Part shown: positions 38,679-39,944 of the stretch, in pieces
Numbering within the stretch: the stretch's first letter is position 1
How the letters are laid out: each line of letters starts with the position of its first letter
From: Escherichia coli O127:H6 str. E2348/69
Lineage (GTDB): Bacteria; Pseudomonadota; Gammaproteobacteria; Enterobacterales; Enterobacteriaceae
Direction: 5' to 3' (one strand)
NCBI RefSeq assembly: GCF_000026545.1
Contig: NC_011601.1
DNA: 64,000 nucleotides
Program-made: the position numbers and the translations under genes
Notes under the pieces: generated by a model
Database searches by the model: none
The model's input: only the letters and a program-made list of their open reading frames with translations
Told to the model about the DNA's origin: nothing

Positions 38679-39944
38679 TTACTTCAGCATAAAGTCATAC
38701 TGAATACTCATTTTCACATCCCAGTAATTCAGGCGATCGCCCAGCGTACTGCCATCGCGCTTTTCCCGCCCTTTATCGGCAGCAAGAAAGAAATTCATCC
38801 CTTGTAACGGCCCTTCGCTGACCCGATAGTTCATACCCCCTAAGATACCCGCGCCTTCAATCCGCACATCTCGTTTACTGGATTCATAGCCGCGGGTCAC
38901 AATCGGTGCAAATGTCAGCGTAAATTGCGGAGTTAAACGATAGTTGACGCCCAATTGCCAGGACTGCATTCCTTCACGGTTACGATCAAGACTTAATGAA
39001 AAGGGATAGCCAATGTCGGTATCCACCACGGCACCATTCATTGCATGGCGCAAATAACCACCACTGCCAAATACGCTTCCCCACGGCGCATTCCAGGTCA
39101 ATTGTCCACTAACCAACGCCGTTTCATTGGGCTGGCTGGTATTACGACTTAAACCTTCAAGTTGCGCGTAAAAGCCGAGCAACTCCCCTTTCAACGTATA
39201 ATTCGGGTCAAGCGGTATGCTTTTCTCGAGAATACTTTGTATCTGATTGGAAACATCTTTCTGTACCGATGCCCCCAGAGAATAGCGACTGGTATCATCA
39301 TGCCAACTGGCGGCTAAAAAAGAACGTGCGCGATGTTTATCGTATTTTCCCGTCTGGCTGTTATAAACACCTTCATCACGAATACCGGTTGTTGAATCGG
39401 TCCATAAAAATACTCGTGAACGCCACATTCCCCACAGATCAATATTTGGCGTTAAAGCCCAATAACCTCATGCTCCTTCAGAAACAGTCGGTAATGTACG
39501 TTGCGAACTGCCAGCCATTAACGGAATACGATAAGGTAAGCTACCATAACTATAATCCGTCCCGAAGCGACCTAATTTTAGCAGGCTATTTTCACTGGGT
39601 TTTATTTTTACTGCCCCCAGGGCAAAGCCAAAACTTTTATCACCATCAAGATACCACCGGGTACTCATATCAGCACGAGCACCTAATTTATAAACATAAT
39701 ACGCCCCGCCTTCAACGCCAATAATATTGGAATAATAACCACTATTGAAATCGAGCAATCCTCCCTGTACCCATGCGTAAATATCTCTTCCCGTGCCAGC
39801 ACTGGGCTTATCAGCCCTGCGCAATTCGTTTTTCAGTCTGATGCGTAGTCCCGCTTCATCGTCAGCCAGTTGCGCCGCGTAAGCAGAGGTAAGGCCAGAG
39901 GCAGCCGTCAGGCAAATAACGGCCATGGCCACTATTTTTCTCAT
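38679..39944 (-). pseudogene. uidC: glucuronide outer-membrane porin uidC interrupted by an in-frame TGA
   Basis: ORFs 39468..39944 and 38679..39428 are in the same frame; stop codon TGA at 39468-39470; read-through gives 158+1+13+249 = 421 codons, the length I recall for UidC. Confidence 0.7.

Follow-up and report, generated by a model that had tools for sequence, protein, structure and literature searches.

A nonsense substitution at codon 159 of the glucuronide porin gene uidC in Escherichia coli O127:H6 E2348/69

We analysed a 64,000-nucleotide stretch of contig NC_011601.1 of Escherichia coli O127:H6 str. E2348/69, referred to here as the window, which is the reverse complement of positions ~2370719-2434718 of NZ_CP059840.2 save for one 2-bp indel far from uidC. 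The glucuronide genes run in the order uidR, uidA, uidB and uidC and are followed by the convergent gene ydgA (Table 1). The uidR, uidA and uidB genes were expected from the original prediction to be intact, and each is indeed an uninterrupted open reading frame (ORF) with no pseudogene flag in RefSeq. The uidC gene is the only pseudogene-flagged feature across the 64-kb stretch in the annotation of NZ_CP059840.2, and all three E2348/69-derived complete genomes (NZ_CP059840.2; NZ_LT827011.1, which is E2348/69 'variety 2'; and its derivative construct NZ_LT903847.1) carry the RefSeq label 'uidC, pseudo, internal stop'. The lesion is already known in that it is recorded in this public annotation, and a full-text literature search on uidC and E2348 returned only an unrelated E. 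albertii paper. A review describes uidC as encoding an outer-membrane permease of the GUS operon.

Table 1. Features of the uid region, in window coordinates
Feature	Position	Strand	Basis
Hairpin terminator between convergent uidC and ydgA, 13 pairs + T run	38644..38675	.	terminator-like site
uidC pseudogene, glucuronide uptake porin, OprD family	38679..39944	-	translation, RefSeq, NF008479, PF03573
uidC 3' remnant, 249-aa ORF from internal Met173	38679..39428	-	ORF list; profile positions 173-421
Premature TGA, codon 159 of uidC	39468..39470	-	alignment to intact alleles
N-terminal uidC fragment, coding part, 158 aa	39471..39944	-	translation; UidC profile positions 1-158
uidB, glucuronide transporter, intact, 457 aa	39983..41356	-	ORF list, RefSeq
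uidA, beta-glucuronidase, intact, 603 aa	41353..43164	-	ORF list, RefSeq
uidR, repressor, intact, 196 aa	43554..44144	-	ORF list, RefSeq

Several features lie elsewhere in the window. The single indel noted above is a 2-bp GC insertion at ~13990-13991, relative to NZ_CP059840.2 and to the other genomes compared. It puts ynfK, a dethiobiotin synthase paralogue annotated as bioD, out of frame and leaves a minus-strand ORF (13839..14504) of 221 aa with an altered C-terminus. The insertion is present only in LT827011.1 and its derivative LT903847.1, where RefSeq applies the label 'frameshifted'; of the 3225 genomes matched by a 61-base search at this site, none but the two variety-2 records was as much as 99% identical. 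Judged by this distribution, the ynfK/bioD insertion is a second lesion specific to the stock. RefSeq annotation also places an IS200C transposase gene between ydgJ and add (window ~50390-50848; record 2383815-2384273), and BLAST self-hits between the window and the record revealed tandem repeats of ~96 bp with ~90% identity at window 56388-56911, inside rsxC by coordinates, a repeat region that we presume to be a known feature.

Translation of the minus strand across the whole of uidC yields one frame of 422 codons including the terminal TAA, in which a TGA after residue 158 is the sole internal stop (gene strand, ...GAA GGA GCA TGA GGT TAT TGG...). The original prediction had read the minus-strand ORFs 39468..39944 and 38679..39428 as a single frame with only this TGA between them, and had given 421 as the length of intact UidC. 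The ORF list and the translation agree on the shared frame, and bridging the TGA gives 421 residues, matching the 421 positions of the NCBIfam profile and the 1266 bp of intact RefSeq uidC genes. The further proposal of a single-base nonsense change was also borne out: uidC aligns to intact alleles without gaps, and gene base 476 is all that separates it from the closest of them, so a substitution rather than a frameshift accounts for the lesion. The change at this base is T to G (window 39469; A to C on the plus strand) and converts the TTA of Leu159 into TGA. Alignment to reference uidC identifies TTA (Leu) as the ancestral codon 159, and reference UidC proteins continue past residue 158 instead of ending there.

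The closest intact relatives of the window gene encode the 421-aa protein WP_001227058.1, which is specified by uidC of strains A25 and 10034292-3 and of pDCE7-1. The A25 and pDCE7-1 genes, a phylogroup B2-type allele, share 1265 of 1266 bases with the window gene, gene base 476 being the only difference, and the allele encoding WP_001227058.1 is the best model of the immediate ancestor. The K-12-derived allele of NEB10-beta is more distant, with 18 base differences comprising 15 synonymous changes, two amino-acid changes and the stop. In K-12 and most E. coli, uidC (gusC) occupies the same locus in the order uidR-uidA-uidB-uidC-ydgA and has 421 codons with TTA at codon 159, whereas the window gene has TGA and a product ending at residue 158. 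Because the nonsense substitution is clean and the rest of uidC is undecayed, a recent origin of the nonsense allele is suggested. The 420-kb record pDCE7-1 (NZ_CP090612.1) is itself unusual in being the sole plasmid-labelled record among the 5439 places with a uidC match; its intact uidC is of chromosomal type and matches at every base the ancestor inferred for the window allele, and the record could be a piece of chromosome binned as a plasmid by mistake, or a large captured chromosomal region.

The identity of the gene was assessed against the NCBIfam equivalog NF008479 ('glucuronide uptake porin UidC'), which has 421 positions and a curated cutoff of 510 bits. The intact UidC allele scored 859.5 bits over positions 1-421 of 421, whereas the N-terminal 158-aa fragment (320.1 bits, positions 1-158) and the 249-aa remnant (493.7 bits, positions 173-421) both fell below the cutoff. 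Because the intact allele passes NF008479 and both fragments fail, we conclude that the DNA is uidC and yet encodes no UidC protein. The gene is the last of uidABC and lies near uidR, as expected of uidC, and lacks the uninterrupted frame of ~421 codons that defines an intact member. The Pfam OprD family (PF03573) matches intact UidC weakly but over its full span (residues 39-389 to model positions 15-367 of 394; E = 7e-6, 25.8 bits). Because this match covers residues 39-389, the stop falls approximately one-third of the way into the porin, the place of residue 159 in the barrel being taken from the Pfam alignment alone. A sequence search of the PDB retrieved no relative of known structure, and AlphaFold2 prediction from the single sequence gave a model (mean pLDDT 28.5) that was unusable for describing the 18-stranded beta-barrel or for placing residue 159 within it.

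A single-base difference is the kind of change that a sequencing or assembly error could make, in which case the true genome would carry a sense codon at 39468-39470. Nothing in the analysis favours this reading. The same base is found in three separately deposited complete genomes derived from E2348/69, and the TGA recurs for other read sets and strains in assemblies from NCBI, ENA and Logan; moreover, the change is a transversion that lies outside any homopolymer run. Among the carriers are one metagenome assembly and two Logan assemblies of independent read sets, and every independent assembly, including those Logan assemblies, has TGA and not a sense codon at this position. Because so many independent assemblies carry the TGA, sequencing error is excluded for practical purposes, and we assign it a negligible probability.

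The distribution of the allele bears on whether the mutation is instead private to a laboratory stock of E2348/69 and was gained during passage. The 1451 bases around uidC are 100% identical to E2348/69 (NZ_CP059840.2), and at least 95% identity is found in 5422 of the 5426 complete E. coli genomes searched. A 31-mer centred on the TGA occurs in only three of these 5426, all of them E2348/69 or its derivatives, and the TTA version of the same 31-mer occurs in 5042. This restriction, together with the presence in the window of the stock-specific 2-bp insertion in ynfK/bioD, would fit a change acquired in the laboratory. Against such an origin, the exact 158-aa truncated UidC is encoded on 99 public contigs (159 index blocks of a public protein collection), with source names such as 'E. 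coli DEC1A' for the 158-aa product and 'E. coli 2362-75' for the matching 249-aa remnant. In addition, six of six TGA-carrier loci that we compared have the TGA and a uidC identical to that of the window, and four of these (L008, L009, L011 and L012) nevertheless differ from the window in flanking SNPs, such as Ile452 in UidB. Because the carriers differ in flanking SNPs and in strain names, a mutation confined to the laboratory is excluded with little room for doubt, and we consider it very improbable.

Comparison of these alleles indicates that the TGA is common to a clonal group and not confined to E2348/69, and the T-to-G change seems to have arisen before a set of closely related strains diverged. 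The EHU accession series represents DEC1 and DEC2 strains. DEC1, DEC2 and 2362-75 are presumably O55:H6 members of the EPEC1 clone, which we understand to include O127:H6 E2348/69, and from the strain names we take the carrier group to be EPEC1. Position 452 of UidB varies within the group: the window and a further carrier locus (L013) have Leu452 (CTC; window 40001-40003, minus strand), and the four loci with flanking SNPs, like the unrelated E. coli that we checked, have Ile452 (ATC). The Leu452 residue seems to be a conservative change peculiar to E2348/69.

An inherited TGA could still be compatible with a functional porin if it were read as selenocysteine or efficiently bypassed so that full-length UidC is made. 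Of the stop codons of E. coli, TGA is the most prone to read-through and also the one used for selenocysteine, and the remainder of uidC is free of further decay; this lack of decay fits a recent origin equally well. The ancestral residue is leucine, encoded by the 5042 genomes with the TTA form of the 31-mer, so the UGA is not conserved among homologues. When 38600-40050 was scanned against Rfam with a permissive E-value, no SECIS or other significant RNA was detected, the only hits being sub-threshold sRNA noise near the terminator, and no SECIS-type stem-loop was recognized. The predicted fold of the 74 nt downstream of the stop was no more stable than that of shuffled sequence (z = -1.2). 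The base following the stop is G, which provides a fairly efficient termination context. Programmed recoding is thus highly doubtful on these grounds, although natural UGA read-through may yield a small amount, a trace, of full-length UidC carrying L159W.

With these alternatives weighed, we consider it very probable that uidC of E2348/69 is a genuine inherited loss-of-function allele, in which a T-to-G transversion turned the TTA of Leu159 into TGA and created a null porin. Translation from the normal start must end after residue 158; it would halt at 158 of 421 residues and leave the remaining 790 nt without productive translation. Residues 1-23 of the 158-aa fragment are predicted to form a signal peptide (MRKIVAMAVICLTAASGLTSAYA, then AQ; window 39876-39944), with a cleavage site read by eye between AYA and A. 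The exported fragment, ~135 residues after signal removal, would make up approximately the initial third of an OprD-type barrel, without the C-terminal strands required for outer-membrane insertion. Because these strands would be absent, no porin is expected to be made and the fragment is probably degraded. We also considered a split porin formed from the products of both ORFs. The 249-aa ORF that begins at Met173 has no signal peptide and is preceded by GGGGA 1 nt before the ATG, closer than is expected of a working ribosome-binding site, and we rejected the split porin because the ORF lacks a signal peptide and, in our judgement, a usable ribosome-binding site.

With uidC at the end of uidABC, and a terminator and the convergent ydgA beyond it, the stop should affect no other gene. 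Repressor, enzyme and inner-membrane symporter would all be kept, and general porins would have to carry glucuronides across the outer membrane. The original prediction held that only the outer-membrane uptake of glucuronides would be affected, which is a reasonable inference. The predicted phenotype would be a mild drop in glucuronide uptake, mostly for bulky glucuronides or at low concentration, with beta-glucuronidase activity kept. GusC/UidC reportedly enhances GusB-dependent glucuronide transport without being required for it, and because the porin is described as enhancing and not essential, its loss may give no measurable phenotype.

The tetranucleotide in which the stop arose is also a site of transposon insertion in other lineages. 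In intact alleles TTAG spans uidC codons 159/160 (window 39467-39470), and a 1195-bp IS5-family element flanked by a TTAG target duplication occupies this position in alleles that encode a 166-aa product (452 index blocks). IS5-family junctions at this TTAG lie near 3996-4000 in one locus (L014) and near 3475-3478 in four others (L015-L018). In strain EA7 the IS5-like element ISKpn26 is inserted in the opposite orientation at the same TTAG, and the 5' part of uidC is lost. An IS5 end abuts the uidC TTAG in 27 of 5426 complete genomes, in varied hosts and in both orientations. The nonsense change in the window affects the second base of this TTAG; IS5-disrupted genes are thus inactivated at the same site, with an N-terminal product of 166 aa compared with 158 aa, but by insertion of an element and not by base substitution. 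IS5 targets YTAR, and a TTA codon is one step from a stop. For these reasons, the co-location of the insertion site and the nonsense change is probably coincidental.

Because IS5-family elements disrupt uidC in other E. coli lineages, the alleles compared here do show that uidC is recurrently inactivated, and the use of this one TTAG as an IS5 hot spot is a minor curiosity in this regard. Whether UidC loss has been repeatedly selected in some gut E. coli lineages, beyond neutral decay, is a different proposition, and one that we regard as unlikely. The proposition draws on the nonsense change and the IS5 insertions having struck one and the same TTAG. Were it true, UidC could be harmful to the cell, for instance by admitting a phage, a colicin or toxic glucuronide-derived aglycones.

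A parallel to the uidC lesion is offered by E. coli O157:H7, in which uidA is inactivated and the phenotype is GUS-negative. The O157:H7 uidA lesion, too, is small and lineage-specific, and it falls within this operon in a pathogenic clone. It abolishes beta-glucuronidase activity, however, whereas E2348/69 retains an intact enzyme and inner-membrane transporter and lacks only the accessory porin. We conclude that the uidC lesion is an ordinary clone-specific nonsense pseudogene, an instance of gene decay, whose relevance is limited to work on the uptake of glucuronides or GUS substrates in E2348/69 or to use as a lineage marker SNP. For the biology of the organism, it means that the prototype enteropathogenic strain E2348/69 and its close relatives would have lost the accessory glucuronide porin and kept beta-glucuronidase and the inner-membrane transporter.
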